Below are positions 9,372 through 55,780 of a DNA stretch of 64,000 bases, piece by piece (position 1 is the first letter of the stretch; the number at the start of each line of letters is the position of its first letter). The notes below the pieces were generated by a model. It did not search any database. It was not told the origin of the DNA and worked only from the letters and a program-made list of their open reading frames with translations. Source of the stretch: Candidatus Nomurabacteria bacterium (lineage in GTDB: Bacteria; Patescibacteriota; Minisyncoccia; Phycocordibacterales; UBA9973); assembly GCA_026395955.1 (NCBI GenBank), contig JAPLXR010000006.1:87259-151258 (forward strand), read 5' to 3'. The position numbers were made by a program, and so were the translations under genes.

Positions 9372-11351
9372 ATGCAAAAAAATAAAAAATATGCCTCGAG
9401 TAAGTTTTTTTTAAAAATATTTTTTTTATTCATTCTAATTTTATTTACATCTAATGTAAATGCAGCACCTCCTGCACCACCCACTATTACTAGTGCAAAA
9501 ATAACAGGAGGTAATGAAATTACTATTTATTATGATAGTGTTTTAACTTCTGATGATATTTCTTCATATTCTAGTTTAGGTTTAGGGCTTATGGGTAGAA
9601 ATATTATTTCAGCCTTTGATAATACTAGCACTAATCACATTATTTTAACTTTTGATGGATTTCCAGTAGCACCAAATACAAAAGGAGCAATAAATATTGA
9701 CACAAATATTGCTTCAAGTGGAGGAAATTTTGCTGGTGTTACAGGTTTGGATTTAGCAGATGGAATTCAGCCATATCTTGGTGCAGTTACATTGCAAGAT
9801 AATGATTCTTCAAATTCCTTTACAGCTGGTGATTCTTTTGTTTTTAGATTTGATGAGCCTATGGATAAAACCACTATTACTACAAGTAATGTAGATTTAT
9901 ATTTAGGTTTAAATCATAGTCATACTTTTGGTACAACAGGTGGAGGTCTTACTCTTACTTGGAATAGTAGGGGGACAATTTTAACTTTAAAAACAGGTAG
10001 TGATGAAACAGTTACAAATGGTGATACAGTAAGTCCTGGAAGTCCTGTTACTGATGCAAATGGAAATATGCAAAATATGCCCTTACCGTTAGAATTACCT
10101 ACGACAGTTACTACTCCTCGAACTCTTTATTTTAATGGAGCAGATGACAGTAATTGGGGAAATATAAATAATTGGTGGAATGATTCTAATTTTACTGATC
10201 CTGCAATTTCATTACCAACTGCATATGATGATGTTATTATTTCTTCAGAAGTACTATCAAATACTTCCGGAGATATTGCATATGTTAATTCTTTAGTGAT
10301 GAATGGTAGTGTAGATTTAGGTAGTGCAATTGGTTTTCTTATTAATCTTAATGTTGCACAAAATGCAATTTTTAATAATTTTTCTGTAGTTATTTATGGT
10401 ACTGTTACTGGAGATGTTGTTTTTAACGATGGTAGTTCTGCTGGTTATGGTGGACCAGGTCTTTATTTTAGTGCGGGATATATAAATGGAGATGTGACGT
10501 TTAATGAACCGACAACAGCAAATTACGAGACAATATTTGGTAATGTTACCTTTCATGGATTTTATGGTAATGCTGGACTTATCTATGGAGATGTAGAATT
10601 TAATGATATTACTTCAAATCCAGGAGAAATTTTCGGACATGTAACCTTCCGTGATAATAGTTTTAATGGTAGTTTTGGGCCTGGAATAATTAACGGAGAT
10701 GTTGATGTATATTATCCTTCTAATAATCCAATTGATTCTATTGAAAATATTTCTGGTACAGTTACATATTATAATTATGACGAAACCCCACCCACAATCT
10801 TAAACGTATCTCCAATCGATAATTCTAAAAACATAAAATCTGATACAAGTATAGTCATTACTTTCTCAGAACCAATAGATACTAATTCTTTTTCAATTAG
10901 CACTACTCCTTGTGATAGCTCTAATAATAGTTGTGCTAGTTACAATGACCCAGTATGGTCAGATGGTGATACTGTTGCTACTTTAACTCGTGTACATGGT
11001 GAATCATTTAAACCAGGTAAGAAATATACAATTTCAATAAATGCTTCTGATTTACAGAGTAATCAATTAGTTGATCCTTACATATGGTCTTTTAAAATAA
11101 AAGATAATTCTTCTAGTGGTGGATATCTCCCAGGTCACATTCCATCTTTCATCCAATCAACAGCCTCCACAACTCCTACAACCACTCTACCTACTACATC
11201 ACCACTAAACCTAACAAGAAACCTCTATCTAGGTGTACCAAACGGAGAAGACATCAAACTTCTCCAAATCTACCTAAACACTCACGGATACCCAGTATCA
11301 ACTACAGGACCAGGTTCTACAGGTAATGAACAACTAAATTCGGTTCTCTAA
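9372..11351 (+). CDS. large secreted cell-surface protein (signal peptide, beta-helix-like GDVxFN repeats, Ig-like domain); C-terminal peptidoglycan-binding domain broken by a frameshift
   Basis: N-terminal signal peptide; about 20-aa repeats GDVVFNDG/GDVTFNEP/GDVEFNDI; Ig-like segment. The PG_binding_1 domain continues in another frame at 11330-11430 (TTKFGSLTKQAVIKFQLAHHIDPIGVVGPRTRGEIK). Confidence 0.6.
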   Translation: MQKNKKYASSKFFLKIFFLFILILFTSNVNAAPPAPPTITSAKITGGNEITIYYDSVLTSDDISSYSSLGLGLMGRNIISAFDNTSTNHIILTFDGFPVAPNTKGAINIDTNIASSGGNFAGVTGLDLADGIQPYLGAVTLQDNDSSNSFTAGDSFVFRFDEPMDKTTITTSNVDLYLGLNHSHTFGTTGGGLTLTWNSRGTILTLKTGSDETVTNGDTVSPGSPVTDANGNMQNMPLPLELPTTVTTPRTLYFNGADDSNWGNINNWWNDSNFTDPAISLPTAYDDVIISSEVLSNTSGDIAYVNSLVMNGSVDLGSAIGFLINLNVAQNAIFNNFSVVIYGTVTGDVVFNDGSSAGYGGPGLYFSAGYINGDVTFNEPTTANYETIFGNVTFHGFYGNAGLIYGDVEFNDITSNPGEIFGHVTFRDNSFNGSFGPGIINGDVDVYYPSNNPIDSIENISGTVTYYNYDETPPTILNVSPIDNSKNIKSDTSIVITFSEPIDTNSFSISTTPCDSSNNSCASYNDPVWSDGDTVATLTRVHGESFKPGKKYTISINASDLQSNQLVDPYIWSFKIKDNSSSGGYLPGHIPSFIQSTASTTPTTTLPTTSPLNLTRNLYLGVPNGEDIKLLQIYLNTHGYPVSTTGPGSTGNEQLNSVL

Positions 11352-11521
11352 CTAAACAAGCAGTAATTAAGTTCCAATTAGCTCATCATATAGATCCTAT
11401 TGGTGTTGTTGGTCCTAGGACTAGAGGGGAGATTAAATAGGTACTTTTATAAAATATAAATACTGCATAATTTGTGTTACACTATACTTAGTTTATTTAT
11501 TAATTTATAAAAGTTTTTATT

Positions 11522-14500
11522 ATGAAAAAAATATTTAGTATTGTTTTAGTTTTAATAGTTGTATTTGGGAATATTCCATTTACAAATTTTGGTACACAAA
11601 AAGTTTTAGCAGATGGATTTCAAGGTACAGGAGATGGTAGTGAGGGGAATCCATTTATAATTACAAATTGTACTTTACTCCAAGAAATAAACTTAGATTT
11701 GGATTTGTATTTTAAATTACAAGGTGCAAATAATACTATAGATTGTTCTGAAACATCTAATTGGAATTCAGATGGTGATGGAGGGTATTATGGATTTCAA
11801 CCACTTGGTTCTGTTAACTCTCCATTTTTTACAGGACATTTAAATGGAAATAATAACACTATTACTAATTTGTATATCAATAGACCTTCATCAACTTTTG
11901 TTGGGCTATTTTCTGTAGTTGATTCTGGTGCTACTATTAGTGATTTAACTTTAAAGGATGTAAATATAACTGGAAACGATCGTACTGGTGCTCTTGTGGG
12001 TTCTCTGAGTGGTACTGTTACAAATGTCCATGCTTCAGGTGTGCTTACAGGAGGTTTTACTACTGGAGGTCTTGTCGGTGCTCATGTGAATAATAATAGT
12101 TGGTATAACTCTAGTCCTTTAGTTTATACTTGGGATGGAAATAAATATAAATATATAGCCGATGTTGGTAATTTATTACCAAAAGAAGTTTTAAATGCTC
12201 CAGATTTGGCTACTGTAGACACTGGCGATTTAGTTCCAAAAGATGGAAAATATTCAATGAAAATTGCAGAAGAATATAATGAAATTGTTTACTATGATAA
12301 ACTCACTTTGAATACTTATGATCATGCACCAGGATATAGTATTGCAGTTCCATTAAACAGAAATGCTGTAGCTAGTGATATAAAAACAGTCAGTGATACA
12401 CCGACAAATCCATTACTTTCTTGTACAGATATGTATGGAAATAATTGTGAAGATACACTCAAGGCAAACGATGACAAATGGGCAGTGCAAGATAAAAGTT
12501 TTGTAAATTCATATATTATGGATTTTGGAGATTTATCAAACAAAGACAGTATACAACTGGTAATGCGTGGTGCTCGTGATTATGATGCTGCTGCAAAGAT
12601 GAGAGCTGCTGGAAATTATCAATCTCTACGCACTGTTCAAGTCAAAGACACAAATGGTAACTGGGTAGAAATTTATAATAAAAATGACTTAGGTTCTGAC
12701 GGTACACCTAGACTTCGAACTATCGACCTTACTGGAAAATTCTTGAGTAATGATTATCATATTAAGGTTGGTTTCGATACAATGTACATGAATTATTTTG
12801 CTGTTGATACATCTGCACAAGTCCCTGTCACAGTGCATACTTATGCTCCAACAAAAGCTGATCTTAGTTTTAGAGGTTTTACTAAGATAAATCATAATCC
12901 GTATGTTGATCATGATTACAATACTGTAACAGTAAATCCTGAAGGAATGTTTAAACCTCAATTTGGTAATTTCACAAAATACGGTGATGTATCTCCATTA
13001 CTTCAAACTTCAAACAATCAATTCGTAATTATGAAAGGAGGTGATCATATGGATATAGAATTCCCATATGTCGCACCCGCCGATGGAATGGTGAGAAGTT
13101 TTGTTTTAGATAATGATGCTTGGTATAAACATGCTTCAAATGAAGGTATTGATTTGCTTGGTAAGACAGTTAGTCCACTTCCATATCAAGGTATGACTTC
13201 ATATACAGCGAATACAAGTGGTTATCCGATGACTGATGAAAATACTAATTATTTAAATACTTGGAATACTCGTGTCTATGCAGGTACACCAAAACATGAT
13301 GTTACAAATGGTAGTACAATTATTAATTCTTCTTCTAGTGTTAATGTTACTACTAATAATAATAGTTACGTAGGAGGACTTGTTGGTTATAATGAAAAAG
13401 AAATTAGAAATTCTTTTGCTACAGGAGATGTAACTGCCAATGGTAATTCTTACAATATTGGAGGATTAGTAGGATTTAATGGAACTGCTGGATCTACTGG
13501 ATGGATACATGATTCTTATGCGACAGGTTCTGTAACAAATATAAATGGTTACGATGTAGGAGGTTTAGTTGGTATTAACCTTGCAAAAATTGAAAGAAGT
13601 TATGCTGCTGGGCTTGTTACATCAAATAATGTTGATTATGCTCATGGACTAATAGGTGATAACTGTGGTGGTGGTTGTAGCACAGAAGTGAATGATTCAT
13701 TTTGGGACACACAAACATCTCAAAAAGAAACTGACGCATCAGGTTCTAATGCTACAGGAAAAAGTTCATCTGAAATGAAAGACATTGCAACATTTACAAA
13801 TGCTAGTACTACAGGACTTACTAATGCTTGGGATTTTACTGGTACATTAAATAATGATGCAGGTACAGATGATATTTGGAAAATAGATGCAAATCAGAAC
13901 AATGGTTATCCATATTTGTATTGGCAAACACCAGCTCCAGTTTTGACTGAAGTGAAACCAATTCCAGCAAAAGTCACAGCAAGTAAGGCAAAATATTATT
14001 TTACAACAGATAAGGCTTGTACTTTACAAGTAAGTGCAGTCGAAACAGACAAGGAAGGTGAAGTTACAGTTCATGTTTCAGGAGAACCTACTCCTGGTGA
14101 GGATTCTAATTTTTATCTAACTGGTTTAAAGACAGGTGGAACATATTCGTTTAATTTTCAATGTATAGATGAAAATGATAGTATTTCAAATACTTTAAAT
14201 GTAGGACCATTTAAAGTTATTTCTAATATTACTTCTTCTGGATATTATTCTCCAGGTAGTGTTCCATCCTTTATTCAATCATCAACCACTCCTGTACAAT
14301 CAACATCACAAGTAAGTACAAATCCAGAGCAAAAAAATATAACAATCTCTGAAATCCAAAAAGTTGTGAAAGATTTAAAATTTGGAATGAAAGACGCTGA
14401 TGTAAAAATACTTCAATCATTCTTAATCTCACAAGACAAAGGAGAAAATGCAAAAGCATTAGCAAAACACGGAACAACTATAAACTTTGGGAAATTAACA

Positions 14501-14602
14501 CAAAAATCTTTAGCAGAATGGCAAAAAGCTAATAATGTTTCTCCTGCAGTTGGTATCTTTGGTCCTATAACTCGTGCAAAGATAAAAGATTTAAATTTAT
14601 AA
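11522..14602 (+). CDS. giant secreted surface protein with GLUG-motif repeats and an intact C-terminal peptidoglycan-binding (PG_binding_1-like) domain
   Basis: Signal peptide; repeated GGLVG segments (YVGGLVGYN, IGGLVGFNG, VGGLVGINL) typical of GLUG repeats. C-terminus reads DVKILQSFLI...FGKLTQKSLAEWQKANNVSPAVGIFGPITRAKI. Shares the SSGGY-PG-PSFIQS linker with the upstream paralog. Confidence 0.7.
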   Translation: MKKIFSIVLVLIVVFGNIPFTNFGTQKVLADGFQGTGDGSEGNPFIITNCTLLQEINLDLDLYFKLQGANNTIDCSETSNWNSDGDGGYYGFQPLGSVNSPFFTGHLNGNNNTITNLYINRPSSTFVGLFSVVDSGATISDLTLKDVNITGNDRTGALVGSLSGTVTNVHASGVLTGGFTTGGLVGAHVNNNSWYNSSPLVYTWDGNKYKYIADVGNLLPKEVLNAPDLATVDTGDLVPKDGKYSMKIAEEYNEIVYYDKLTLNTYDHAPGYSIAVPLNRNAVASDIKTVSDTPTNPLLSCTDMYGNNCEDTLKANDDKWAVQDKSFVNSYIMDFGDLSNKDSIQLVMRGARDYDAAAKMRAAGNYQSLRTVQVKDTNGNWVEIYNKNDLGSDGTPRLRTIDLTGKFLSNDYHIKVGFDTMYMNYFAVDTSAQVPVTVHTYAPTKADLSFRGFTKINHNPYVDHDYNTVTVNPEGMFKPQFGNFTKYGDVSPLLQTSNNQFVIMKGGDHMDIEFPYVAPADGMVRSFVLDNDAWYKHASNEGIDLLGKTVSPLPYQGMTSYTANTSGYPMTDENTNYLNTWNTRVYAGTPKHDVTNGSTIINSSSSVNVTTNNNSYVGGLVGYNEKEIRNSFATGDVTANGNSYNIGGLVGFNGTAGSTGWIHDSYATGSVTNINGYDVGGLVGINLAKIERSYAAGLVTSNNVDYAHGLIGDNCGGGCSTEVNDSFWDTQTSQKETDASGSNATGKSSSEMKDIATFTNASTTGLTNAWDFTGTLNNDAGTDDIWKIDANQNNGYPYLYWQTPAPVLTEVKPIPAKVTASKAKYYFTTDKACTLQVSAVETDKEGEVTVHVSGEPTPGEDSNFYLTGLKTGGTYSFNFQCIDENDSISNTLNVGPFKVISNITSSGYYSPGSVPSFIQSSTTPVQSTSQVSTNPEQKNITISEIQKVVKDLKFGMKDADVKILQSFLISQDKGENAKALAKHGTTINFGKLTQKSLAEWQKANNVSPAVGIFGPITRAKIKDLNL

Positions 14603-16457: not shown

Positions 16458-17027
16458 ATGCAAAACGATTACAAAGACAAACTAAATAGTTTCTATTCAA
16501 AGAACAAAAGAATGCCGACATACACAGAAATGATGAAGCTGTTTTCTTTCAAGTCCAAGAATGCCGTAGCCCGAGTCGTCGATAAAATGATCGAAGCCGG
16601 ACTCGTCGCCAAGGATCACCTTGGTCGTTTAATTCCCGATAAATTTTTAAATGAAGTAGTAATGCTCGGTTCTGTGAAAGCCGGATTTCCGAGCGATGTC
16701 GAGGAACAAACTTTTAATGATACAGTAAACCTCGATGATTTTTTAATAGAGAAAAAAGATTCCACATATATGCTCGAAGTTGATGGTGATTCTATGATCG
16801 ATGCACATATTAAAAATGGTGATATGGTTTTAGCTGAACGTACAAATAAAGCCAAAGATGGCGACATTGTGATAGCCGAAGTGGATGGGGAATTCACAAT
16901 GAAATATTTTAAACAAAAGGGTGACAAAGTTTGGCTCGAGCCAGCCAACAAAAATTTTAAACCTATTTATCCTAAATATGATTTAAAGGTGACAGCGATA
17001 GTCAAAGCCGTAATTCGTAAATATTAG
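16458..17027 (+). CDS. lexA: LexA-like transcriptional repressor (S24 peptidase family)
   Basis: N-terminal winged HTH; C-terminal S24 autopeptidase motifs VDGDSMIDAHIKNGDMVL and ...KDGDIVIAEVDGEFTMKYF (Ser/Lys dyad region). Confidence 0.85.
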   Translation: MQNDYKDKLNSFYSKNKRMPTYTEMMKLFSFKSKNAVARVVDKMIEAGLVAKDHLGRLIPDKFLNEVVMLGSVKAGFPSDVEEQTFNDTVNLDDFLIEKKDSTYMLEVDGDSMIDAHIKNGDMVLAERTNKAKDGDIVIAEVDGEFTMKYFKQKGDKVWLEPANKNFKPIYPKYDLKVTAIVKAVIRKY

Positions 17028-22612: not shown

Positions 22613-23227
22613 TTAATTTAATTGCTTATAATAACCTGGTAAAAAAGATATTTTTGTAATTGGTAATAATCTTATTAAAGCTCTTCCGACTAGTAACTTT
22701 TTTGGAACTGGTCCCCAATATCTAGAATCTGAACTTCCTGATCTATTGTCTCCCATTACGAAATATTCGTCATTTGTTAAGACTCGATGGGCGCTATCTT
22801 CGGAATGATTTTTAACGTAAGACTGATCGAGTGCAAATCCTTCTGGATGTTCTTTGTTTGTGATTATTGTTTGTTCCGCTTTTACATCTACTGTTTCACC
22901 TGGAAGTCCGATAATTCTTTTTATAAAAAACTTTGATGTGTCTCCTGGATATCTAAAAACTACAACATCACCACGTTGTGGACTTTTAAAATTATATGTA
23001 AGTTCATCTACTATTAAATATTGTCCATTTTGAAATGTTGGAACCATCGATGTTCCAGACACTACGAATGGTTGAGCGACAAATATACGAATAGGAATAA
23101 CTATGACTATTGCTATAAAAGCAAAGCGTACTAATTCCCAAAAGTTTTCTTTGAAGGTTTGTTTTTTTTCTTGAGCTATGGTTTCTTGTGTTTTTTGACC
23201 CTTTAAATCTTCATTTTGTGTTTCCAT
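22613..23227 (-). CDS. lepB: signal peptidase I
   Basis: N-terminal TM helix, SGTSMVPTF (Ser box), GDNRSGSSDSRYWG (box E). Confidence 0.85.
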   Translation of the reverse strand: METQNEDLKGQKTQETIAQEKKQTFKENFWELVRFAFIAIVIVIPIRIFVAQPFVVSGTSMVPTFQNGQYLIVDELTYNFKSPQRGDVVVFRYPGDTSKFFIKRIIGLPGETVDVKAEQTIITNKEHPEGFALDQSYVKNHSEDSAHRVLTNDEYFVMGDNRSGSSDSRYWGPVPKKLLVGRALIRLLPITKISFLPGYYKQLN

Positions 23228-32492: not shown

Positions 32493-34088
32493 ATGAAAAT
32501 ATTTAAACAAAACTTTTTAATGAAAATAGCTCTAGTAGTATTTTTGTTTTTGATATCTTTTGGATTTTCAAAAAATGTTTTTGCTGCTACATTAGTAGCT
32601 ACTAATATAACACCAACCTCTGTTGCTGTTGGCGGTGGAGGATTTACTCCTGGTGTTTCTTATCAGATTACTATATCTGATACATTAGGTATAGTTAATC
32701 ATACATTCGTTACTGCTTGTTCAACTCTTTCTACTTCCTGTACTACCTTGGGTACTTTTGGGGTTAGTTTTACTAACTTGACTCAACATCATAATTATGA
32801 TTTAATGGCAACTCTTCAGTCAAATGGAACTCCCGTTGGAAGTCTTATTAGTTTTACTACAGCGACAGCTCCAACAACTGTAACCCTAACAGCAACACCT
32901 TCGACTCTTGCATCAGGACAATCAACAACATTATCTTGGACAGCGACAAATGTTACCGGTAGTTGTATCGCTGCTAGTAATCCAAATATTATAGCTGTGT
33001 GGGATAATCCACATAAAGCACTTTCCGGGACACAATTAGTTTCAGTTGTAGCTTCTAATAATTTTTCTCTTTCTTGTACTGATGCGTCAGGTAATTTTGC
33101 AGGACAAGCAAATGCTTTTGTTACTGTAACAGGAGCAGGTTCTGGTGCTACTGCTGCTCCTATTGGTACACCTCCACCTGGTACTTTTCCATCAACTACG
33201 CCTGTAACACTTTCTAGCTCTACTAGTGGTGCAACAATTAGATATGTTATAGATGCTTCTACTCCTACATGTACCTTAGGTTCTACTACGAATCCTATGA
33301 GTGTTAGTACTACAACAACAATAAAAGCTATTGCTTGCGATCCCCATGGAGTTGCTTCTACTATTTCTTCTTTAACTTATACAATTAATTCCTCTAGTGG
33401 GGGAACACCACCACCTCCTACTGGTGGTCCTACTACAAATGGATCTATGGTAGCTAATGATCCTACTTCAACTATGGTTACATTAGATGCGACAGGTCTT
33501 TCTAATACAGGAAGCTATCTTTTTGCTGTTTACAATAATACTGGAACACCATCATATTATCAAACGAGAATTCCTGCAACAACAGATGGAACTGACGGAG
33601 AATCACCCTTCCCAGGTTTATCTCCTAGTGGTTCATATACTGCTTATTTAATAGATCAAAATACCTCTAATAATGCTGTTCCTTCTATTACATTTTCAAC
33701 TTTAGCTACAGACCCCCTTATAATAGGTGCTGGATCCGGTAGTGGTGTAGCTTCTACTACACCTGCGTCAAATCTATCAAACCCAGCTGGTGGTTTAGTT
33801 CCAGCATGTACTAATGCAAGAGGTTGTCAGTGGGCAGATTTAATGTCTTTGGTAAATAAAGTTGTTAAATTTATTCTTTTTGATCTAGGAATTCCTATAG
33901 CAGCTATTATGTTTATGTATGCTGGTTTTTTGCTTGTTACATCTGGTGGAAATCCTGGAGATCTTACAAAAGCAAAAGGTATATTTACTTCTGTTCTGAT
34001 AGGTCTTGTTATTTCAGCTGCCGCTTGGCTTATTATAAATATAATACTGACTACTTTAGGTTTTGTTGGTGATAGACTTGGGTTTTAA
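32493..34088 (+). CDS. large Thr/Ser/Pro-rich secreted surface protein with a C-terminal two-helix pilin-like module (CTNARGC...IGIPIAAIMFMYAGFLLV...AKGIFTSVLIGLVISAAAWLIINIIL)
   Basis: Signal peptide, long low-complexity T/S/P/G region, and the last ~90 aa paralogous to the five downstream small proteins, closest to 34112-34480. Confidence 0.55.
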   Translation: MKIFKQNFLMKIALVVFLFLISFGFSKNVFAATLVATNITPTSVAVGGGGFTPGVSYQITISDTLGIVNHTFVTACSTLSTSCTTLGTFGVSFTNLTQHHNYDLMATLQSNGTPVGSLISFTTATAPTTVTLTATPSTLASGQSTTLSWTATNVTGSCIAASNPNIIAVWDNPHKALSGTQLVSVVASNNFSLSCTDASGNFAGQANAFVTVTGAGSGATAAPIGTPPPGTFPSTTPVTLSSSTSGATIRYVIDASTPTCTLGSTTNPMSVSTTTTIKAIACDPHGVASTISSLTYTINSSSGGTPPPPTGGPTTNGSMVANDPTSTMVTLDATGLSNTGSYLFAVYNNTGTPSYYQTRIPATTDGTDGESPFPGLSPSGSYTAYLIDQNTSNNAVPSITFSTLATDPLIIGAGSGSGVASTTPASNLSNPAGGLVPACTNARGCQWADLMSLVNKVVKFILFDLGIPIAAIMFMYAGFLLVTSGGNPGDLTKAKGIFTSVLIGLVISAAAWLIINIILTTLGFVGDRLGF

Positions 34089-34111: not shown

Positions 34112-34480
34112 ATGAAAATAAATAATCTTTTTCAAAGAAATATATATAAGATATCTTTAGCTACTTATGTTTTGTTGTATCCAACTATTTCTTTTGCTGT
34201 TACTTATACTTGTAATCCTGGTGAAATTTGTAACCCTATCAGTGCTAGTACTCTAAATGAATTTATAAAAGCAATATTAGAAGGTGCTATAAAGATAGGT
34301 ATACCTATAATTGCCTTGGCAATTATTTATAGTGGTTTTCTTTTCGTAAAAGCACAAGGTAATGAAAAAGAACTTGAAACAGCTAAAAAGGCGATATTAT
34401 ATACATTGATCGGTGCAGCATTATTATTGGGTGCTTGGGCTTTAGCACAGCTTGTATCAGAGACAGTTTTAGCTTTATAA
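34112..34480 (+). CDS. VirB2/TrbC-like putative pilin (signal peptide, CxxxxxC loop, two hydrophobic helices separated by a K/E-rich loop), paralog 1
   Basis: CNPGEIC...IKIGIPIIALAIIYSGFLFVKAQGNEKELETAKKAILYTLIGAALLLGAWALAQLV. Confidence 0.5.
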   Translation: MKINNLFQRNIYKISLATYVLLYPTISFAVTYTCNPGEICNPISASTLNEFIKAILEGAIKIGIPIIALAIIYSGFLFVKAQGNEKELETAKKAILYTLIGAALLLGAWALAQLVSETVLAL

Positions 34481-34484
34481 TAAA

Positions 34485-34814
34485 ATGAACAAAAATTTAA
34501 AAAATTTATTTGCAGCTTGTGTACTTACACCACCTAATACTTTTAAAAGTTTTGTAGAATTTATTTCTTGTAATATAAATAAATCTATAATTCCTTTTAT
34601 TATGGCTTTATCTTTTGCTGTATTTTTTTGGGGAATTGTTCAGTACTTATTGGGAGCAAACGAAGAAACAAAAAGAACTAAAGGGCGAGAGTTCATGATT
34701 TGGGGTATTGTTGGTTTGGCTGTTATGATATCTATCTGGGGTTTTGTGGCTGTTTTAGGAAACACTTTCGGTGTTCAGAATGTTATTCCTCAAGTTCAAA
34801 ATACTTCAATATAA
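34485..34814 (+). CDS. VirB2/TrbC-like putative pilin, paralog 2
   Basis: C...C pair, then IIPFIMALSFAVFFWGIVQYLLGANEETKRTKGREFMIWGIVGLAVMISIWGFVAVL. Confidence 0.45.
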   Translation: MNKNLKNLFAACVLTPPNTFKSFVEFISCNINKSIIPFIMALSFAVFFWGIVQYLLGANEETKRTKGREFMIWGIVGLAVMISIWGFVAVLGNTFGVQNVIPQVQNTSI

Positions 34815-34815
34815 T

Positions 34816-35148
34816 ATGAAAAATTTTAATTATAAAAATTTACTTGCTGTATGTCCGTTAGCTTCAAGTCCAAAAATAGGTGATATTTTTGACTTTAGTA
34901 CCTGTTTGATTTCTAGAGGCATTTTCCCTATATTGTTTGCTTCAGCTCTCGCTGTATTTACTTGGGGTGCTGTTCAATATGCATTAAATGCTCAAGACGA
35001 AAAGAAAAGAGAAGAAGGTAGAAAGTTTATAGTTTGGGGATTAATAGCTTTTACGGTCATGATTTCTGTTTTAGGGTTAATAACCATAATAACCAATAGT
35101 TTTAGTATAGGGCACGCTAATCCCACTATTCAGTCTGTTACCCAGTAG
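34816..35148 (+). CDS. VirB2/TrbC-like putative pilin, paralog 3 (start at MKNFNYK; the track ORF's upstream extension overlaps the previous gene)
   Basis: CPLAS...STC pair, then FPILFASALAVFTWGAVQYALNAQDEKKREEGRKFIVWGLIAFTVMISVLGLITII. Confidence 0.5.
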   Translation: MKNFNYKNLLAVCPLASSPKIGDIFDFSTCLISRGIFPILFASALAVFTWGAVQYALNAQDEKKREEGRKFIVWGLIAFTVMISVLGLITIITNSFSIGHANPTIQSVTQ

Positions 35149-35263
35149 CATTTGTTTTTCTATTTATGGTATAATTAAAGTAACCTAATCATTTAGGATA
35201 TTATTATTAAGAAGGTCGTTTTGTTTATTAATTATTATTAACTCGATTAATCGAGAAAAAAAT

Positions 35264-35665
35264 ATGAAGAAAAAATTAATTAGTTCAGCTAGTTTGGTCG
35301 CATTGTCAGCATTAGTTCCTTTTATTGCTTCTGCTGCTCAAAATTGTCTTGTACCTACAGGTGGCACAGATATCCCTTACATGATTTGTAGGGTAAGTAA
35401 TATTATCAACTCACTCGTGCCTCTATTTATCGCATTAGGAGTTGTTTACTTTATTTGGGGTGTTATTTCTTATGCTATTTCAAAAGAAGAAGAAGCAAAG
35501 AAAGAAGGAAAGGCAAGAATCATTTATGGTCTTATCGCCCTCCTAGTTATCGTTTCTATCTGGGGACTTGTTTCTATTCTACAAAGTTCATTCGGAATAA
35601 GTTCTGCTGGTAATACTGACACAGTATTCGTTCCTTGTATTAACTCAGATGGTACAGTTTGTTAA
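35264..35665 (+). CDS. VirB2/TrbC-like putative pilin, paralog 4
   Basis: Clear signal peptide (ASAAQNC), C...C pair, LVPLFIALGVVYFIWGVISYAISKEEEAKKEGKARIIYGLIALLVIVSIWGLVSIL; extra C-terminal Cys pair. Confidence 0.5.
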   Translation: MKKKLISSASLVALSALVPFIASAAQNCLVPTGGTDIPYMICRVSNIINSLVPLFIALGVVYFIWGVISYAISKEEEAKKEGKARIIYGLIALLVIVSIWGLVSILQSSFGISSAGNTDTVFVPCINSDGTVC

Positions 35666-35684
35666 TTTTAGTTAATACTTTATT

Positions 35685-36038
35685 ATGTCTTTAATTAATG
35701 TAGCTTATGCTGGTGAAAGTTTAGATCAATTCATAAAGAATGTTGATAAACTTATCATTAATCCATTAATAATATTACTTTTTGGCCTAGCTACAGCTTA
35801 TTTCTTTTGGGGAGTATTTAAACTTATTTCAAATACCGACAATGAAAAAGCTCGTAGTGATGGTAAAAAACATATGTTATTTGGGATTGTTGGTATCACC
35901 ATTATGTTGGCGGTGTGGACTATTTTAGGAATTATTACTAATACCTTAAATATAAGTAGTGGTGAAATAAATCCACAACAGGGTACAGTACATCTAAATG
36001 ATTATACTCCTTCTACACCATCCGGATTTCTGCATTAA
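35685..36038 (+). CDS. VirB2/TrbC-like putative pilin, paralog 5 (no Cys pair)
   Basis: LIILLFGLATAYFFWGVFKLISNTDNEKARSDGKKHMLFGIVGITIMLAVWTILGII. Confidence 0.45.
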   Translation: MSLINVAYAGESLDQFIKNVDKLIINPLIILLFGLATAYFFWGVFKLISNTDNEKARSDGKKHMLFGIVGITIMLAVWTILGIITNTLNISSGEINPQQGTVHLNDYTPSTPSGFLH

Positions 36039-36063: not shown

Positions 36064-36106
36064 TAAAAAAACTCCTTCGCATTTTGCGAGGGAGTTTTTG
36101 TTTTTT
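36064..36106. terminator. bidirectional rho-independent terminator closing the pilin-like array (+) and the 131-aa gene (-)
   Basis: actccttcgc-atttt-gcgagggagt flanked by an A-run and T-runs. Confidence 0.75.
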
Positions 36107-36135: not shown

Positions 36136-36531
36136 CTAGTCGATTGTATCGACTTTGTGTCCACCTCTAGATACGAATGTATATGTATCTGTAGGTTGAT
36201 AACCAGCATGTACTACTTTATTTGGTCCATCGTGAGATATGCAAACTCCACTTGAGTTGTATATATCATAATCTCCATCGATAGGGTAAGCAGTCCAACC
36301 TTCTTTTAAGAAGATCTGTGTTCCAGAAGATGTTATTGTCCAACTTCTTCTTTGTTTGCCGATATTTACTACTGTCTGTTGTGCAACGTTACTCGATGTT
36401 TGAGTATTGTTGTTTTGTGTACTGTTTGATTGTTGATTGGAAGTACTCTCAGAACCTGAGAAGTACAACCAACCAAATAGAGCTACTGCTATTACTATAA
36501 CAATAGTACCAATTACCTGTTTTGCATCCAT
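36136..36531 (-). CDS. small membrane-anchored extracellular protein (131 aa)
   Basis: N-terminal TM anchor, S/T/N/Q-rich linker, small globular C-terminal domain. Confidence 0.4.
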   Translation of the reverse strand: MDAKQVIGTIVIVIAVALFGWLYFSGSESTSNQQSNSTQNNNTQTSSNVAQQTVVNIGKQRRSWTITSSGTQIFLKEGWTAYPIDGDYDIYNSSGVCISHDGPNKVVHAGYQPTDTYTFVSRGGHKVDTID

Positions 36532-36557
36532 TTAAATAAGTTTTTAAGTTTATATTT

Positions 36558-37517
36558 TTACTTTTTTCCAGCTCCTGCACCAAAACTACCTCCTGTGCCA
36601 ATAAATGTATGCATTCCTTCTGGTGCACCTGTAAATTTAAAATTAGAAGTCTGTTCATTTTCAGTGTACTCCTGATTTGGATCTTGAAGTTTTGCAACTT
36701 TAGTCGCTTCTTCAATGGACATACCAGTTTTTTTCATGATTATTTTAACTGCTTCTGCAAAGGCTTCTGCTCTTGTTTTTGGTAACTTAATTTTCTTTGA
36801 TTCTGAACTCAAGCTACTGTCTTTAAGAGTAAACTTTATTCCAACTCCATTTGCTTCTTGGAATTCGTTTAAAATTTTTAAACCAGTACTATTTGGTCCA
36901 AAGAAAACTCCTTTAATAACAGCTTCTTCGTCTACCAAATGTGATGATGGATGTTTACTGTAATATGTAGAAAATACACCTTCTATCATATCAGAAAATA
37001 ATTCAACCATTTTTTCTTGGCTTTCAAATTTTTTAGATTTGATTACATTTTCAGTTACTTCATCTGCTGTGCCTTCTGTATCTATCCACATTGTTCCTGA
37101 AAATTGTGCATTCATTTCAATATTACTATCATTAGTTGTTAGTGGAATGTTTGCACTTAAAGGCATTACAGTTTTTAAGCTGTCAAAAATTTTTTGACTC
37201 TTTGAAGTTTCTACTGTTTCGATACCGAGAAAATGAAATCCAGCGAAAAGTACGCGTCTTCTTTTTGTGAATGTATTGAATGTAACTGTGTACTTCCAGT
37301 CTTTAACAGTTTCTGCAAGTACTCCAGTAAATATCAATACTCCATAAGCAACCCCAGTTATTCCAAACAAAACAAGCTTAACTTTTAACAGGATAATAAG
37401 TAAAACCCAGATGATAACATGTAATGCTATTACGCTTAATGGGGTAATTGTTTTTGGGACATCAGTTGTCCTTTTTTTGTTAGAGACAGTAGTCCCCAAA
37501 ATTTCTAATTGTGCCAT
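36558..37517 (-). CDS. hypothetical membrane protein (319 aa, 2-3 TM N-terminal, soluble C-terminal domain)
   Basis: ORF with a hydrophobic N-terminus. Confidence 0.4.
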   Translation of the reverse strand: MAQLEILGTTVSNKKRTTDVPKTITPLSVIALHVIIWVLLIILLKVKLVLFGITGVAYGVLIFTGVLAETVKDWKYTVTFNTFTKRRRVLFAGFHFLGIETVETSKSQKIFDSLKTVMPLSANIPLTTNDSNIEMNAQFSGTMWIDTEGTADEVTENVIKSKKFESQEKMVELFSDMIEGVFSTYYSKHPSSHLVDEEAVIKGVFFGPNSTGLKILNEFQEANGVGIKFTLKDSSLSSESKKIKLPKTRAEAFAEAVKIIMKKTGMSIEEATKVAKLQDPNQEYTENEQTSNFKFTGAPEGMHTFIGTGGSFGAGAGKK

Positions 37518-37619
37518 TTTTTTTATGAATTAAATTGTTTTTAATTATTTTTTAAAATACATTTCTATACTTATAGTATATCATATGCAACATAAAAAGT
37601 CAAGCCATTTAAACCAAAA

Positions 37620-37670
37620 CCCCCTCTCCTTAATAAGGAGAGGGGGCAAGGGGGTGAGGTGGTTTTTTTA
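37620..37670. repeat. GC-rich hairpin repeat copy E (CCCCCTCTCC-ttaataa-GGAGAGGGGG-CAA-GGGGGTGAGG) followed by a T-run; doubles as a terminator for the minus-strand gene ending at 37668
   Basis: Perfect 10-bp stem; same arm and flank sequence as copy B; A/T runs on both sides. Confidence 0.7.
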
Positions 37671-38411
37671 AGCTTTCTTTAATGCTACAGGTTCTTTTTT
37701 TGTATCACCCATATATAGCTTTCTAGCTAAGAATATTGCTATTAATACTAAGATGATAAGCAATAACCATTGTATGAATGTTGTAGGCATAAATCCTGAA
37801 CCGAAAGCATTTGCTGTGAGACCGTTACAATCTGTGCTATTTATGGCAGAAGCTGTTAAAGCCTTTTTAGCAGTTGTTGTTTTTGCTGGAGTAGCCTTTG
37901 CTGGTGTATTTGTAGTTGCTGGTGGATAATCTCCGACAGTACTAGGGGCTACGGTTGTAGTTGTTTTTGTGATGTTTAAATAAACTCCATTTGAGACATG
38001 TCCAGTGTCTTGATTATATACAGTTACTACATGACTTCCAGATGTGGCTACGTCAGAAGGGTATAGAGCCATACTTAAGTGAGTAGTATTTATATACTTT
38101 GTAGGTCTATTTGATCCGTCTAAACGAGCGACTGATCCTGGATTGAAGTTTGCACCTGTAATATTTATAACTTCATTTGCATTAGTTGAATCTGAAACAC
38201 TGTTCGGTGTTATTGAATAAATAATTGGTGTAGCCACATTATAATAATTATTTGTATTATTGTTGTTATCAACACTTGTAGGATTACCTAGGTAGTAACC
38301 AGGGCCTCCAGCATTAACTTTAGCTGGTGCAAAAGAAAACACTATTAGAGCTAAAACACTCAATAATATCACTGTGTTATATTTAATTGTTTTATTTAAT
38401 ATGTTAGTCAT
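37668..38411 (-). CDS. secreted Thr-rich protein with a C-terminal TM anchor (247 aa)
   Basis: Signal peptide, T/P-rich linker, C-terminal hydrophobic helix plus K-rich tail. Confidence 0.45.
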   Translation of the reverse strand: MTNILNKTIKYNTVILLSVLALIVFSFAPAKVNAGGPGYYLGNPTSVDNNNNTNNYYNVATPIIYSITPNSVSDSTNANEVINITGANFNPGSVARLDGSNRPTKYINTTHLSMALYPSDVATSGSHVVTVYNQDTGHVSNGVYLNITKTTTTVAPSTVGDYPPATTNTPAKATPAKTTTAKKALTASAINSTDCNGLTANAFGSGFMPTTFIQWLLLIILVLIAIFLARKLYMGDTKKEPVALKKA

Positions 38412-38506: not shown

Positions 38507-38591
38507 GCCCGGATGGCGGAATTGGTATACGCGCACGACTTAAAATCGTGTCTCGCAAGGGATGTGGGTTCGACCCCCACTCCGGGCACCA
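38507..38591 (+). tRNA. tRNA-Leu (anticodon TAA), long variable arm, CCA encoded
   Basis: Cloverleaf read by eye: acceptor gcccgga/tccgggc, anticodon loop cttaaaa. Confidence 0.8.
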
Positions 38592-38605
38592 AAACTTAAT
38601 ATAAT

Positions 38606-38678
38606 GCGCCCATAGCTCAGCTGGTAGAGCAGATCCCTCTTAAGGATAAGGTCCAAGGTTCGATCCCTTGTGGGCGCA
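38606..38678 (+). tRNA. tRNA-Lys (anticodon CTT)
   Basis: gcgccca...agctcagctggtagagc...cctCTTaagg...ggttcgatcc...tgggcgc. Confidence 0.8.
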
Positions 38679-38703
38679 CAATAAATATAAAGTATATTTA
38701 GAT

Positions 38704-38760
38704 AACTGCTGGAGTGGCGGAATTGGTACATATAGTTAGTCTTTTGTACTAGTAACAAAG
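38704..38760 (+). repeat. decayed tandem copy (pseudo-tRNA) of the 5' half of tRNA-Leu(TAG): 25-nt exact direct repeat (38704-38728 = 38781-38805), degenerate anticodon arm, no T-arm
   Basis: aactgctggagtggcggaattggta appears twice. The first copy continues into ttagtcttttgtactag, resembling the anticodon arm ctagtcttaggaactag, then ends. Confidence 0.6.
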
Positions 38761-38784
38761 CAACAGTTTAAAAAGTTAAAAACT

Positions 38785-38866
38785 GCTGGAGTGGCGGAAT
38801 TGGTATACGCGCTAGTCTTAGGAACTAGTCCCGCAAGGGTTGAGGGTTCGAGTCCCTCCTCCAGCA
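38785..38866 (+). tRNA. tRNA-Leu (anticodon TAG), long variable arm
   Basis: gctggag acceptor, anticodon loop cttagga, T-arm ggttcgagtcc, 3' ctccagc-a. Confidence 0.8.
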
Positions 38867-38870
38867 CAGT

Positions 38871-38942
38871 GGCCTAGTCGCCAAGTGGTAAGGCAAAGAT
38901 CTGCAAAATCTTTATACGACGGTTCGATTCCGTCCTAGGCCT
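38871..38942 (+). tRNA. tRNA-Cys (anticodon GCA)
   Basis: ggcctag...ctGCAaa...ggttcgattcc...ctaggcc-t. Confidence 0.75.
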
Positions 38943-38955
38943 CAAAAAGTTAGAA

Positions 38956-46170: not shown

Positions 46171-48582
46171 TTAATTTATACTAAAATTAAGATCTGAAAA
46201 GTCAGAAACTGACGGTGCGTTAGCATCAAACATAGTAATCTTATATTCATTTATTCCAGCAGAAAGACCAGCTAAGCTGGTAGTAAAACTACCCGTATTT
46301 GTTGTAACGAAATAAATAGAGTTACCACTCATTACATTCTCTATAAAGATCCCTATTGGTGCAGAAACAGGAATCAGTGAAGATGTCCAAGATATAGTGA
46401 TTGTTTGACCTACACTAAAATATTCTCCTCCATTTGGAAAATCAACATGTATAGCAGCACCCGCTGGTATTTGATAAACAAGACCACCATTACTGTACGA
46501 ATTAGTATTACCGAGGCTAGATTGATCTTCAACAACAAAATTCACTCCAAAAATGCCACCAATAATATAGTTACCATACTGCAAAGACGCTCCAGCGCTA
46601 ATAGTAGTAGAAAAATTTTGTGATTGACCTGGAGCAAGCGTAAATTGTTGGGTTGTATTTATGGTTATGGTTACTGCATTTGATCCTGCTGAAAGCCGAT
46701 TCAGTGTTATGGTCGAAGGAAGAGTAAAGGTTGATGTAGAGCATATTGAGCTATCTGTGTTAGTAATAGTCGCATTTACTACTAACGGACCGTTGCTTAA
46801 ATCAATAGAGGAAACAGGAAAACTTGGAATATTTAATGTCGGGTGTCCTGAACTACAAACAGCAAGGCTTGGATTAGGTGCACTAATAGAAACAACAGCG
46901 TGAATAGAATCTGTAGATATCGTGGTAATAGTGCGTCCTGTTGCTCGGTCAATATATGAGTGCCCTACAGTAAGTGGCGCATCATTTAAAGTATTTGTAT
47001 TTGGCATAGTGTCAATAAGATTATTATCATAACGTAAAGAAACACCATTCATCACTGGATCAGTTGAAGAGTATGTATCCCGAACACCGTAAGGTCTCCT
47101 GTACTCGAGTGTAAAATATGCACTATTACCTGTATTATCTTGTGTCGGGAAACGAAGTGCTTTTTGAAAAATTGCCTGAGGGTACAGGGGAAATTGTCCC
47201 CACTGAGTAGGACCAAGAGTAGTTATATCGGTCGGCAATATATTTCCAATTACACCTAATTTTAATTTTTCAAACACACTAAAAAGTAGTTTTGGATCCC
47301 ATCCATTACCCATGACTGAAAAAGGATCTCCATATTCTATGTGAGTACAATGCCCACCGTCAAAAAACGAATACGCTTCAGGCGCACCAGAAGCATCAAC
47401 ACAATTTTGTGAATTTGCATGCATTAGATCAAGTGAATGTCCCATTTCATGAATAATTGCTGAAGAACTAGTAGTGTATAAAACTGCACGAGGTCCGTAT
47501 GTACTTATTCCATAAAAACCACCAACAGGACAACTAACAGAAGGTGCAACGAGAACGACTACATCGTACCCATTCGGATCAAATCCATTTTGCATGGCCA
47601 TAGCTTCTGCTTCATTAGCCCAATTATTTTGAGATGTAGGATACGTACAACCAGCGCTGCCATGAGGCAAAGTATAATATCCATATACATCATTAGTACC
47701 ATCAACACTATTTTTGCCAACTAATTTTATCACTCCATAGGAAGCTGTCCTATAAAAACCAGCGATACTATTTATATTATTCGGTTCGTTGTCATACATA
47801 TATTCTCGTGCAGTACTTATCGGGTAAGCTGCAACAGCAGTACTTGCATTATCTTGGAAATTAAAAAGTATTGTGGCAATTTTATATTCTCCTGCATTTG
47901 CTCCAGTGGTTTGAAGACTTTTTTGTTGATTTGATTTAGCAGATGAAGCAAATATTTTATTCACTGAAAGTATTTTACCTTTCAGTGTTCCGATAATAAC
48001 AACTTGCTTACGGTTTAATGGATTTTCGTCAGTAAGTTGTTCTTTGTCAGAAGAAGTTAAATTTAAACTAGTGCCGTCTGATAGTAACAATTGAGCTACT
48101 GGTATTTCTTTACTGAGAGTTCCATTTTTGCCAAAAATGTCACCATGCGAAAGATTTAAAATACCGCTATATTCTTTTTCAGAATTTTTTGTTGATACAA
48201 TAGCCGAGGTTTTAGAATCAACTTTTTGCATAACTGCTTTTGTAGTGACTTCCGCTGTTTTTGTATTTGTCTTAGTAGTTGCATCTTTCGTCGCGGCAGT
48301 TAACGATTTTACTGCACCACTTGAAGCAGTAGTGCTCTTTGTAAGCATAGTAGTAGCTTTTGTATCTGTTGTTAAGGAAAGACCTTTGGTACCAGTCTGA
48401 CTGAGTAACTTCATAATTGTATCTTTTTGTTCTTGAGTTAGAGGCGTAGAAGTAGTACTCGTTACGCTGTTTACTACAGTTGCAGTATTATCTGTCGGTG
48501 GGACATTGAAACCGAGCTTTGCAACAATGATAACCAAGACAACGGCTCCGATAAATAGCCCAAACTGTAAATATTTTTTCAT
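46171..48582 (-). CDS. large secreted metzincin-like zinc metallopeptidase (HEMGHSLDLMH plus an SVM Met-turn), T/S-rich N-terminal stalk, beta-rich C-terminal domains
   Basis: Signal peptide; HExxHxxDxxH with H at positions 1, 5 and 11; downstream FSVMG Met-turn. 803 aa. Confidence 0.6.
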   Translation of the reverse strand: MKKYLQFGLFIGAVVLVIIVAKLGFNVPPTDNTATVVNSVTSTTSTPLTQEQKDTIMKLLSQTGTKGLSLTTDTKATTMLTKSTTASSGAVKSLTAATKDATTKTNTKTAEVTTKAVMQKVDSKTSAIVSTKNSEKEYSGILNLSHGDIFGKNGTLSKEIPVAQLLLSDGTSLNLTSSDKEQLTDENPLNRKQVVIIGTLKGKILSVNKIFASSAKSNQQKSLQTTGANAGEYKIATILFNFQDNASTAVAAYPISTAREYMYDNEPNNINSIAGFYRTASYGVIKLVGKNSVDGTNDVYGYYTLPHGSAGCTYPTSQNNWANEAEAMAMQNGFDPNGYDVVVLVAPSVSCPVGGFYGISTYGPRAVLYTTSSSAIIHEMGHSLDLMHANSQNCVDASGAPEAYSFFDGGHCTHIEYGDPFSVMGNGWDPKLLFSVFEKLKLGVIGNILPTDITTLGPTQWGQFPLYPQAIFQKALRFPTQDNTGNSAYFTLEYRRPYGVRDTYSSTDPVMNGVSLRYDNNLIDTMPNTNTLNDAPLTVGHSYIDRATGRTITTISTDSIHAVVSISAPNPSLAVCSSGHPTLNIPSFPVSSIDLSNGPLVVNATITNTDSSICSTSTFTLPSTITLNRLSAGSNAVTITINTTQQFTLAPGQSQNFSTTISAGASLQYGNYIIGGIFGVNFVVEDQSSLGNTNSYSNGGLVYQIPAGAAIHVDFPNGGEYFSVGQTITISWTSSLIPVSAPIGIFIENVMSGNSIYFVTTNTGSFTTSLAGLSAGINEYKITMFDANAPSVSDFSDLNFSIN

Positions 48583-52085: not shown

Positions 52086-53416
<1,331 letters not shown>

Positions 53417-54892: not shown

Positions 54893-55780
54893 ATGTTAGA
54901 AGATACAAATCAAATCGAAAATAAAATAAAAGAATTAGAAGAAAAAATGATTCTTCCAGATTTTTGGTCTGACAAATTGAATGCTCAAGCTACCTTAAAA
55001 GAACTTGCAGAATTGAAAGATAAAAAAGAAGGCCTCGGCAAGTATGATAAGGGTTCTGCAATTATAAGTATTTTTTCTGGAGCAGGTGGAGATGATGCAG
55101 AAGATTTTTCAAAAATTCTTTTTGAAATGTATATGAATTATGCAAAACATGCTAATTTTGATGTCTCATTTATTGATGAGCATCAAAATGATCATGGTGG
55201 ATATCGTAATGTTTCTTTTGAAATATCTGGGAAGGGTGCCTATGGAAAATTAAAAAATGAATCAGGTGTTCATCGCCTCGTAAGAATTTCACCTTTTAAT
55301 GCAAAAAAAATGCGTCACACTTCTTTTTCTCTCGTAGAAGTTTTACCAAAGTTTTCAAAAATGGATGAAAAAGATTTTTTTATTCCTGATTCAGATTTGA
55401 AAATAGAATTTTCTCGTGCAGGTGGTCCGGGTGGACAAAATGTAAACAAAAGAGAAACAGCAGTGAGGATAGTTCATGTTCCTACAGGATTATCAACGCA
55501 TGCAAATGGTGAACGAACTCAAGAAGCAAATCGTGAAAGGGCGATGAGTATCCTCCGTGCAAAGATTTTTAAAAAAGCAGAAGAAGAAAAGAAAACTTTT
55601 GAAGAAAGTATGAAGATTTCTAAAGGTACTGAAATAGAATGGGGAAGTCAGATTCGTTCATATGTCTTCCATCCATATAAAATGGTCAAAGACCATCGTA
55701 CAGGAGCAGAGACCTCAAACGTAGATGCAGTTTTAGAAGGTTATTTAGATTTATTTATAGAAGCTGAGAAGAATCTATAA
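54893..55780 (+). CDS. prfB: peptide chain release factor 2 (short N-terminal domain; no programmed +1 frameshift)
   Basis: SPF tripeptide (RISPFNA) and a GGQ motif (RAGGPGGQNVNK). Only 21 bp separate the upstream tRNA from the ATG, so there is no room for a frameshift leader. Confidence 0.85.
   Translation: MLEDTNQIENKIKELEEKMILPDFWSDKLNAQATLKELAELKDKKEGLGKYDKGSAIISIFSGAGGDDAEDFSKILFEMYMNYAKHANFDVSFIDEHQNDHGGYRNVSFEISGKGAYGKLKNESGVHRLVRISPFNAKKMRHTSFSLVEVLPKFSKMDEKDFFIPDSDLKIEFSRAGGPGGQNVNKRETAVRIVHVPTGLSTHANGERTQEANRERAMSILRAKIFKKAEEEKKTFEESMKISKGTEIEWGSQIRSYVFHPYKMVKDHRTGAETSNVDAVLEGYLDLFIEAEKNL

Follow-up and report, generated by a model that had tools for sequence, protein, structure and literature searches.

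The window analysed here is a 64,000-nucleotide stretch of a 156,652-bp contig from a Candidatus Nomurabacteria metagenome-assembled genome. Within it, five small genes lie head to tail on the forward strand at 34112–36038 and are preceded by open reading frames (ORFs) for proteins of 531 and 430 aa. In the public record the window proteins are annotated as hypothetical (locus tags NTW62_01850 and NTW62_01880), and the nearest genomes to the window are those of other Nomurabacteria. A sequence-only reading had taken the five genes, here called P1 to P5, for a tandem array of pilins resembling those of type IV secretion systems (T4SSs). The family, conservation and possible function of this array are described below, together with those of the 531-aa protein, which carries a sixth domain of the same kind and is referred to as the first or F-type pilin.

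The pilin array and its family

All five genes were present where they had first been read, and their sizes of 109–133 aa held in general. The third gene had been given as 125 aa, but it most likely starts at the ATG at 34816 rather than the GTG at 34771, since both the public gene calls (110 aa) and the orthologues use the ATG. Intergenic gaps in the array are 1–23 nt except between P3 and P4, where the gap is 115 nt, and P5 is followed by a strong terminator, so that the packing of the array is operon-like. A putative internal promoter is inferred only from an extended –10 element read in the longer gap (Table 1), and a promoter consensus scan gave no enrichment over shuffled sequences.

Hydropathy indicated two hydrophobic spans, making up a hairpin, in each of the six proteins. 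The loops between the helices, which had been quoted correctly from the sequence, contain 4–5 K/R and 3–4 D/E residues, and the C-terminal tails contain no K/R, the termini lacking positive charge. Under the positive-inside rule these charges predict a cytoplasmic loop with both termini outside. This is the known topology of VirB2-family pilins. A third, N-terminal span with Sec-type signal features (a clear signal being a K/R n-region, an h-region of at least 15 residues and a small-x-small site) was found only in P1, P4 and the 531-aa protein, so the secretion signal first thought to be shared by the array is clear in these three and not in P2, P3 and P5. Likewise, all six proteins except P5 have a Cys pair ahead of helix 1, and P4 has a second pair at its C-terminus. 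The WG motif attributed to the whole set takes the form [YF]-x-W-G in P2–P5, and P1 and the 531-aa protein carry Y-[SA]-G-F instead.

The division into two subgroups proved real: P1 and the 531-aa domain share 35 % identity over 74 aa and P2–P5 share 27–38 %, against 19–28 % across the subgroups. An AlphaFold2 model of P1 from a 62-sequence alignment (mean predicted local distance difference test score 82.9; helices 4–27, 48–80 and 85–121) suggests a leader helix followed by a long helical hairpin.

For family assignment, gathering thresholds of 26.6 bits for PF18895 (T4SS_pilin) and 27.9 bits for PF04956 (TrbC/VirB2) and a cut-off of 40 bits for NF045849 were applied. All six domains (P1–P5 and residues 456–518 of the 531-aa protein) matched PF18895 at 30.2–34.7 bits with E-values of 2e-8 to 5e-7. 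As all six scores exceed the threshold at such E-values, the assignment is not a chance one, and the original guess at a T4SS-pilin family was right. The companion guess of TrbC/VirB2 fared less simply, since no window protein reaches the PF04956 cut-off. However, among 62 orthologues of P1, all 62 matched PF18895 and 61 matched PF04956 at E≤1e-3 (best 1.6e-9), which supports homology of P1 to TrbC/VirB2 despite its own score. P1 is the most TrbC/VirB2-like member of the array. The top NCBIfam model for the five small proteins was NF045849 at 15.6–32.4 bits, below its cut-off, and NCBI names on orthologues are 'pilin' or 'TrbC/VirB2 family protein'.

When the six domains were combined into a profile, no further copy was found among all window ORFs of at least 50 aa, and against PDB sequences the profile returned only spurious matches to transmembrane (TM) segments of G-protein-coupled receptors. 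Structure searches were uninformative, the helical-hairpin fold being generic.

Other pilin classes and a phage origin were rejected. The class III signal motif of type IV pilins, G|[FM]xxxE, and the LPxTG sorting signal of sortase-assembled Gram-positive pilins each occur in none of the six proteins. The PHROGs comparison gave no lysis or holin match and the array is surrounded by housekeeping genes. Neither tblastn against phage and plasmid collections nor a scan of viral contigs found any relatives. The holin or immunity families and prophage-borne relatives that had been named as grounds for abandoning the pilin reading were thus not encountered.

Conservation of the locus and variation in hairpin number

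The locus was compared across three Nomurabacteria genomes, six further contigs and 39 metagenome loci of at least 9 kb, the last recovered with the P1 alignment. The array was present in 39 of the 39 metagenome loci and in the nine others. Its 5' side has the conserved order S1 protein (reverse), metallo-beta-lactamase-fold protein, gyrA, methyltransferase, solute-binding protein (SBP) and then 5–6 pilin genes containing 5–7 hairpin domains, all forward from the metallo-beta-lactamase-fold gene onwards. Its 3' side consists of convergent fast-evolving membrane genes, rbfA, infB and a DUF4446 gene (all three reverse), and a nifS-like gene and clpB (both forward). The array is therefore a core-genome locus of this Nomurabacteria lineage. 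No virB4 was found within 10 kb of the array in any related locus compared.

The order of genes within the array is also conserved: an F-type gene, a P1-type gene, a variable block of P2/P3/P4-type genes and a P5-type gene. Eight of nine typed arrays fit this order and one is rearranged, and the P5-type gene is the final one in eight of the nine. In the two closest relatives (L004 and L005) same-position orthologues share 48–80 % identity, compared with 19–38 % between paralogues and 93 % for GyrA. By position, identities were 54–76 % for P1 orthologues, 73–75 % for P2 (L004, L005), 48–50 % for P3, and 79–80 % for P5 (58 % in L006). Genomes with as much as ~20 % divergence in GyrA still share this order. 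This one-to-one positional orthology, combined with the fixed order, points to a non-redundant multi-subunit assembly rather than to interchangeable variants.

Neighbouring hairpins are moreover fused in many relatives, where a P4-like and a P2-like hairpin form one four-TM protein of 190–270 aa. Such fusions may be read as Rosetta-stone evidence that the neighbouring paralogues act together. To approximate a heterodimer, one naturally fused two-hairpin protein (P0042) was modelled with AlphaFold2, which gave two hairpins without confident packing (predicted template modelling score 0.51).

Run with HMMER against 1.84 billion representative proteins, the six-domain profile matched 43,825 representatives at E≤1e-3 and 7,799 at E≤1e-10. 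Many of the top-scoring proteins have several tandem hairpins, with three in P0242, seven in P0246, 11 in P0274 (1147 aa) and 16 in P0279 (1775 aa). The repeats of these poly-pilins are genuine, each containing a Cys pair, two TM helices and a charged loop, and P0274 is an uninterrupted ORF on its own contig that matches both PF18895 and PF04956. Such proteins are topologically allowed because every hairpin begins and ends outside. No description of poly-pilins was found in the literature searched.

The first pilin varies most conspicuously in length, from 122 to 727 aa across loci. In the window it comprises, in order, a signal peptide, a Thr/Ser/Gly-rich region of ~400 aa described as extracellular and containing a CHB_HEX_C_1/Fn3_assoc domain, Cys439/Cys445 and the C-terminal PF18895 hairpin, with hydrophobic spans at residues 3–36, 454–485 and 494–527. 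It is orthologous to small first pilins of 125–133 aa in L007 and L008 (53–54 % identity over the C-terminal 109–115 aa). Compared with these more distant relatives, it has gained ~400 aa of extracellular sequence between leader and hairpin.

The 430-aa protein upstream is a membrane-anchored SBP with no ABC permease or ATPase gene beside it. Its stop codon lies 6 nt 5' of the start of the 531-aa pilin. An orthologue lies immediately 5' of the array in 38 of the 38 metagenome loci with upstream DNA and also in L004–L011, L014 and L015, at a spacing of ~11 nt or less or with an overlap, and the SBP gene is probably co-transcribed with the array. As a functional partner of the pilins the SBP has been downgraded, adjacency alone being weak evidence because the entire 20-kb neighbourhood is syntenic.

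Table 1. Coordinates and properties of the array, its surroundings and related loci (window positions unless a locus is named)
Feature	Position	Strand	Properties
Orphan SBP (SBP_bac_8), 430 aa	31194–32486	+	PF13416 54.6 bits; one N-terminal TM span
F-type modular pilin, 531 aa	32493–34088	+	PF18895 33.1 bits (residues 456–518, nt 33858–34046); PF13290 46.7 bits
P1 pilin, 122 aa	34112–34480	+	PF18895 33.8 bits; PF04956 22.9 bits (E 1e-4); predicted signal peptide ISFA|VT; C34-x5-C40; hairpin
P2 pilin, 109 aa, WG subgroup	34485–34814	+	PF18895 30.2 bits; Cys12, Cys29; two hydrophobic spans
P3 pilin, 110 aa	34816–35148	+	PF18895 31.2 bits; alternative GTG start at 34771 (125 aa) overlaps P2
Candidate internal promoter element, extended –10 TGGTATAAT	35167–35175	+	In 115-nt P3–P4 gap; read from sequence
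P4 pilin, 133 aa	35264–35665	+	PF18895 34.7 bits; predicted signal peptide IASA|AQ; Cys28/Cys42; C-terminal Cys125/Cys133; three hydrophobic spans
P5 pilin, 117 aa	35685–36038	+	PF18895 31.2 bits; no signal peptide or Cys; strongly conserved N-terminus MSLINVAYAGESLDQF
Bidirectional intrinsic terminator	36067–36099		15-bp stem between A-run and T-run; between array and convergent genes
Three convergent membrane/surface genes	36136–38411	-	131-aa TM protein; 319-aa protein; 247-aa protein
803-aa ORF	46171–48582	-	No Pfam match; Thr/Ser-rich N-terminal region; HEMGH (HExxH) motif
P4-like/P2-like fusions	L007:10001–10594, L008:10001–10621, L010:10001–10660, L011:10001–10603, L014:10396–11109
Poly-pilin locus	L016:950–4393

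Neighbouring genes and other features of the window

The 64 kb are housekeeping chromosome, encoding GyrA, IF2, RbfA, ClpB, HisRS, CTP synthase, signal peptidase I, PhoH, FtsX and 11 tRNAs. In agreement with the sequence-only reading, no VirB4, VirD4, VirB6 or relaxase was found among the window ORFs scanned, a set that covered every ORF of at least 500 aa and left out a few below 230 aa.

Three genes converge on the array from downstream, and their membership in the pilin system is uncertain. The 319-aa protein and its orthologues in L004 and L005 share only 29 % identity, compared with 93 % for GyrA, and a homologue search with it returned only itself. Its counterparts at the same position match PF01145 (Band_7) at 45–59 bits in L010 and L011 and at 18.5 bits in L004, suggesting that it is a probable divergent SPFH/Band_7 scaffold. 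This assignment rests on the syntenic proteins elsewhere, whose multiple alignment is poor. The 247-aa protein contains a choice-of-anchor-Z repeat (NF058597, 68.7 bits) and a C-terminal TM anchor. For the 131-aa protein, no orthologue was detected by BLAST in the closest genomes. Between these fast-evolving surface genes and rbfA lies a cluster of four tRNAs on the forward strand at 38507–38943 (Leu-taa, Lys-ctt, Leu-tag and Cys-gca).

Two SF-clan serine peptidases were found in the window, an S24-like peptidase (16458–17027, forward, 99.9 bits) and signal peptidase I of family S26 (22613–23227, reverse, 162 bits). TraF, the TrbC cyclase of RP4, is signal-peptidase-like, and by analogy it may be speculated that one of the two processes the pilins.

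Further candidate surface proteins are encoded at a distance from the array. The 803-aa ORF (Table 1) reads as a secreted HExxH protein and not as an ATPase, and may represent a new surface protease of the zincin-like type. The forward strand at 9372–14602 encodes two large, probably surface-located proteins, one of 659 aa with a Big_5 Ig-like domain and one of 1026 aa with a GLUG motif and a region resembling the N-terminus of M26 IgA1 proteases. Large surface proteins of this Big_5/GLUG/M26 sort are typical of the host-interaction repertoire of epibiotic bacteria of the candidate phyla radiation.

Two reading-frame irregularities were also observed. The adenylosuccinate synthetase gene purA is split into two overlapping forward ORFs, 52098–52841 (model positions 1–208) and 52805–53416 (model positions 221–412), reflecting a frameshift, a pseudogene or an assembly error. 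A forward release-factor ORF at 54893–55780 (295 aa, PCRF and RF-1 domains) is missing the first ~90 model positions, which is consistent with prfB carrying a programmed +1 frameshift.

Relation to known pilin systems and possible function

The sequence-only reading had proposed a previously undescribed surface filament or host-interaction system. That novelty claim did not survive comparison with the literature, in which the array is another example of the known Patescibacterial VirB2-like pilin arrays described between 2023 and 2025. In Ca. Southlakia epibionticum, the T4SS cluster is essential for epibiotic growth, and strain ML1 carries six tandem PF18895 genes (SEML1_0014–0019), all essential, adjoining VirB6-like, NTF2/VirB8-like, PrgI and TraC/VirB4 genes (Wang et al. 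2023, Cell, PMC10633639). The two arrays are alike in family (PF18895, with some PF04956), number of domains (six), tandem same-strand layout, protein size (~100–185 aa), phylum and divergence of the paralogues. They differ in that the Southlakia array lies beside T4SS genes near dnaA, whereas the window array is placed between gyrA and infB, has no T4SS gene within the 64 kb, bears a ~400-aa extracellular module on its first member and is preceded by an orphan SBP gene. Function has been tested only in Southlakia.

A broader survey applied PF18895 and PF04956 to 3,035 Patescibacterial genomes and reported VirB2-like pilins in 1,948 VirB4-bearing assemblies, near virB4 in 1,135 and away from it in ~40 % (Quinonero-Coronel et al. 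2025, Microb Genom, PMC12102498). It described 441 arrays of 2–11 pilin genes with a mean within-array identity of 25 % and at most 54 %, most abundant in Microgenomatia and Saccharimonadia, and centred on genes within 20 coding sequences (CDS) of virB4 (PMC12102498). The window array resembles these in its tandem PF18895/PF04956 pilins, low identity (19–38 %), chromosomal position and absence of a relaxase. It belongs to the Paceibacteria (Nomurabacteria) and, being more than 20 CDS from virB4, falls in the unlinked class of ~40 %. VirB4 was recorded in 19 of the 20 Nomurabacteria assemblies in the first part of Table S1 of the survey (PMC12102498). Since the window is about a tenth of such a genome and 19 of 20 Nomurabacteria have VirB4, the lack of T4SS genes in the 64 kb is not anomalous. 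The searchable text of the survey contains no gyrA–SBP-linked locus, fixed positional orthology or fusions (PMC12102498), and in the searchable part of the literature more widely the gyrA–SBP locus, the fixed positional order, the modular first pilin and the fusions were not found.

The classical pilins VirB2 (T-pilus), TrbC (RP4) and TraA (F) share with the window pilins a leader, two hydrophobic helices, a basic loop and termini on the outer side. However, they come from diderm bacteria with one major pilin each, encoded inside the T4SS operon, whereas the window host is monoderm with six paralogues unlinked to virB4. Several classical pilins are cyclised, and a phospholipid is bound in most solved pili. 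Unlike them, the window pilins have a Cys pair before helix 1, half have no clear leader and all miss the PF04956 cut-off. The Mbov_0395 pilin-like conjugal transfer protein (NF045849) of Mycoplasma integrative and conjugative elements comes from a monoderm T4SS lineage, and Patescibacterial VirB4 is related to the same class. Nevertheless, that family is single-copy and borne on a mobile element, and the window proteins score below its 40-bit cut-off. For the 531-aa pilin, Streptococcus sanguinis PilB (PMC8179133) offers another pilin scaffold with a grafted adhesion module, although this is an analogy only, its pilin superfamily and assembly machine being unrelated to those of the window pilins.

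Taken with the family assignment, these comparisons indicate that the cassette is probably the VirB2-like pilin set of a Patescibacterial T4SS, held at a conserved core locus apart from the virB4 cluster, and its function is most likely to supply pilin subunits to a T4SS encoded elsewhere in the genome. In the mechanism we propose, the Sec/YidC pathway would insert the pilins into the cytoplasmic membrane so that the loop faces the cytoplasm and both termini face outwards, signal peptidase I would cut the leader off P1, P4 and the 531-aa protein, and the Cys pair would form an extracytoplasmic disulfide. A VirB4-powered T4SS would then pull pilins from the membrane pool into a surface filament or channel extension touching the host bacterium. 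The six pilins would most likely be non-redundant subunits of one hetero-oligomeric structure, because every position has a conserved orthologue and neighbours are repeatedly fused, and the variable extracellular module of the first pilin would probably be its adhesive, host-specific part.

Several observations weigh against this interpretation. PF04956 scores for P1 (22.9 bits) and the 531-aa protein (15.5 bits) are below the cut-off and the remaining proteins have no match. P2, P3 and P5 have no obvious signal peptide, with only an uncharged run of 10–11 residues in P2 and P3 and none in P5. No T4SS machinery was found across ~32 CDS 5' and 27 CDS 3' of the array, and it is by family membership and published statistics that the array is linked to VirB4. 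To our knowledge, a pilus has been visualised for no PF18895 protein. Finally, proteins of 7–16 hairpins fit a ring embedded in the membrane no less well than a long filament.

A further reading, which we hold to be less likely than not, is that PF18895 arrays in general encode one hetero-oligomeric assembly of fixed composition, built of distinct hairpin subunits rather than interchangeable pilus subunits. In Nomurabacteria such an assembly may comprise the F-type, the P1-type, at least two WG-type and the P5-type subunits, with their genes in a core-genome operon that lies away from the T4SS ATPase gene, and the 16-hairpin polypeptides may be the extreme of the same building principle. Its form may be that of a filament of mixed subunits, one of them a modular adhesin, or that of a closed ring in the membrane, and it may work together with the orphan, probably co-transcribed SBP.

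The proteins could instead form a ring or channel, that is, a membrane hetero-oligomer of fixed stoichiometry and not a pilus, perhaps independent of VirB4 and acting with the SBP and an SPFH-like scaffold, but this seems unlikely. It would account for the one-to-one positional orthology and fixed order, for the frequent fusion of neighbours and the single polypeptides of 3, 7, 11 and 16 hairpins, and for an array that is never within 10 kb of virB4 in the lineage and always adjoins the orphan SBP and SPFH-like genes. The hairpins of proteolipid c-rings are likewise found fused in tandem. F1F0 ATP synthase subunit c is also the best structural domain match of one Southlakia pilin (Table S2 of Wang et al. 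2023, PMC10633639). However, synteny extends over the entire 20-kb region from S1 to ClpB, and the adjacency of the SBP and SPFH-like genes may therefore reflect no more than neighbourhood conservation. In addition, Saccharimonadia carry the PF18895 family inside the T4SS cluster, tandem fusion also fits a filament topologically as both termini face the same side, and the packing in the two-hairpin P0042 model was not confident.

It is improbable that the paralogues are interchangeable major pilins by which antigens or host range are varied, a role proposed for VirB2 paralogues in Bartonella and Anaplasma. The idea has been suggested for Patescibacteria (Quinonero-Coronel et al. 2025, PMC12102498), and it draws on the low identity of the paralogues, the faster evolution of the pilins than of housekeeping proteins (48–80 % versus 93 % for GyrA) and the variable copy number of the middle block. 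Set against these are the conserved orthologue at each position, the order that persists at ~20 % GyrA divergence, and the F-type, P1-type and P5-type genes, which are single-copy and always present. Recombination repeats and silent cassettes were not observed, although no search was aimed at repeats. All six Southlakia pilins were scored as essential (PMC10633639), which also argues against antigenic variation, with the proviso that transposon-insertion sequencing can be polar in a tight operon. The notion that these are unrelated small membrane proteins resembling pilins (holins, bacteriocin immunity proteins or parts of an SBP-dependent transporter), prompted by the generic fold, weak sub-threshold matches to TctB (PF07331) and other membrane families, and the adjacent SBP gene, is largely refuted by six of six PF18895 scores above threshold, by the PHROGs, phage, plasmid and viral-contig results above and by the lack of an adjacent lysin, permease or ABC ATPase, and has very little probability left.

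Much of the uncultivated diversity of bacteria belongs to the Patescibacteria, which grow attached to host cells, and the only species among them that is open to genetics needs its T4SS, including the pilin array, for this way of life. As a discovery, the cassette is another instance of a documented feature, and it would be of more interest if the hetero-oligomer or poly-pilin reading were true. To the question of what the pilins build, the locus adds comparative constraints, namely a core, syntenic, virB4-unlinked operon with orthologues at each position, repeated fusions and a variable surface module. These constraints favour a structure of several subunits over antigenic variants, and they indicate which subunit to examine for a role in host recognition.

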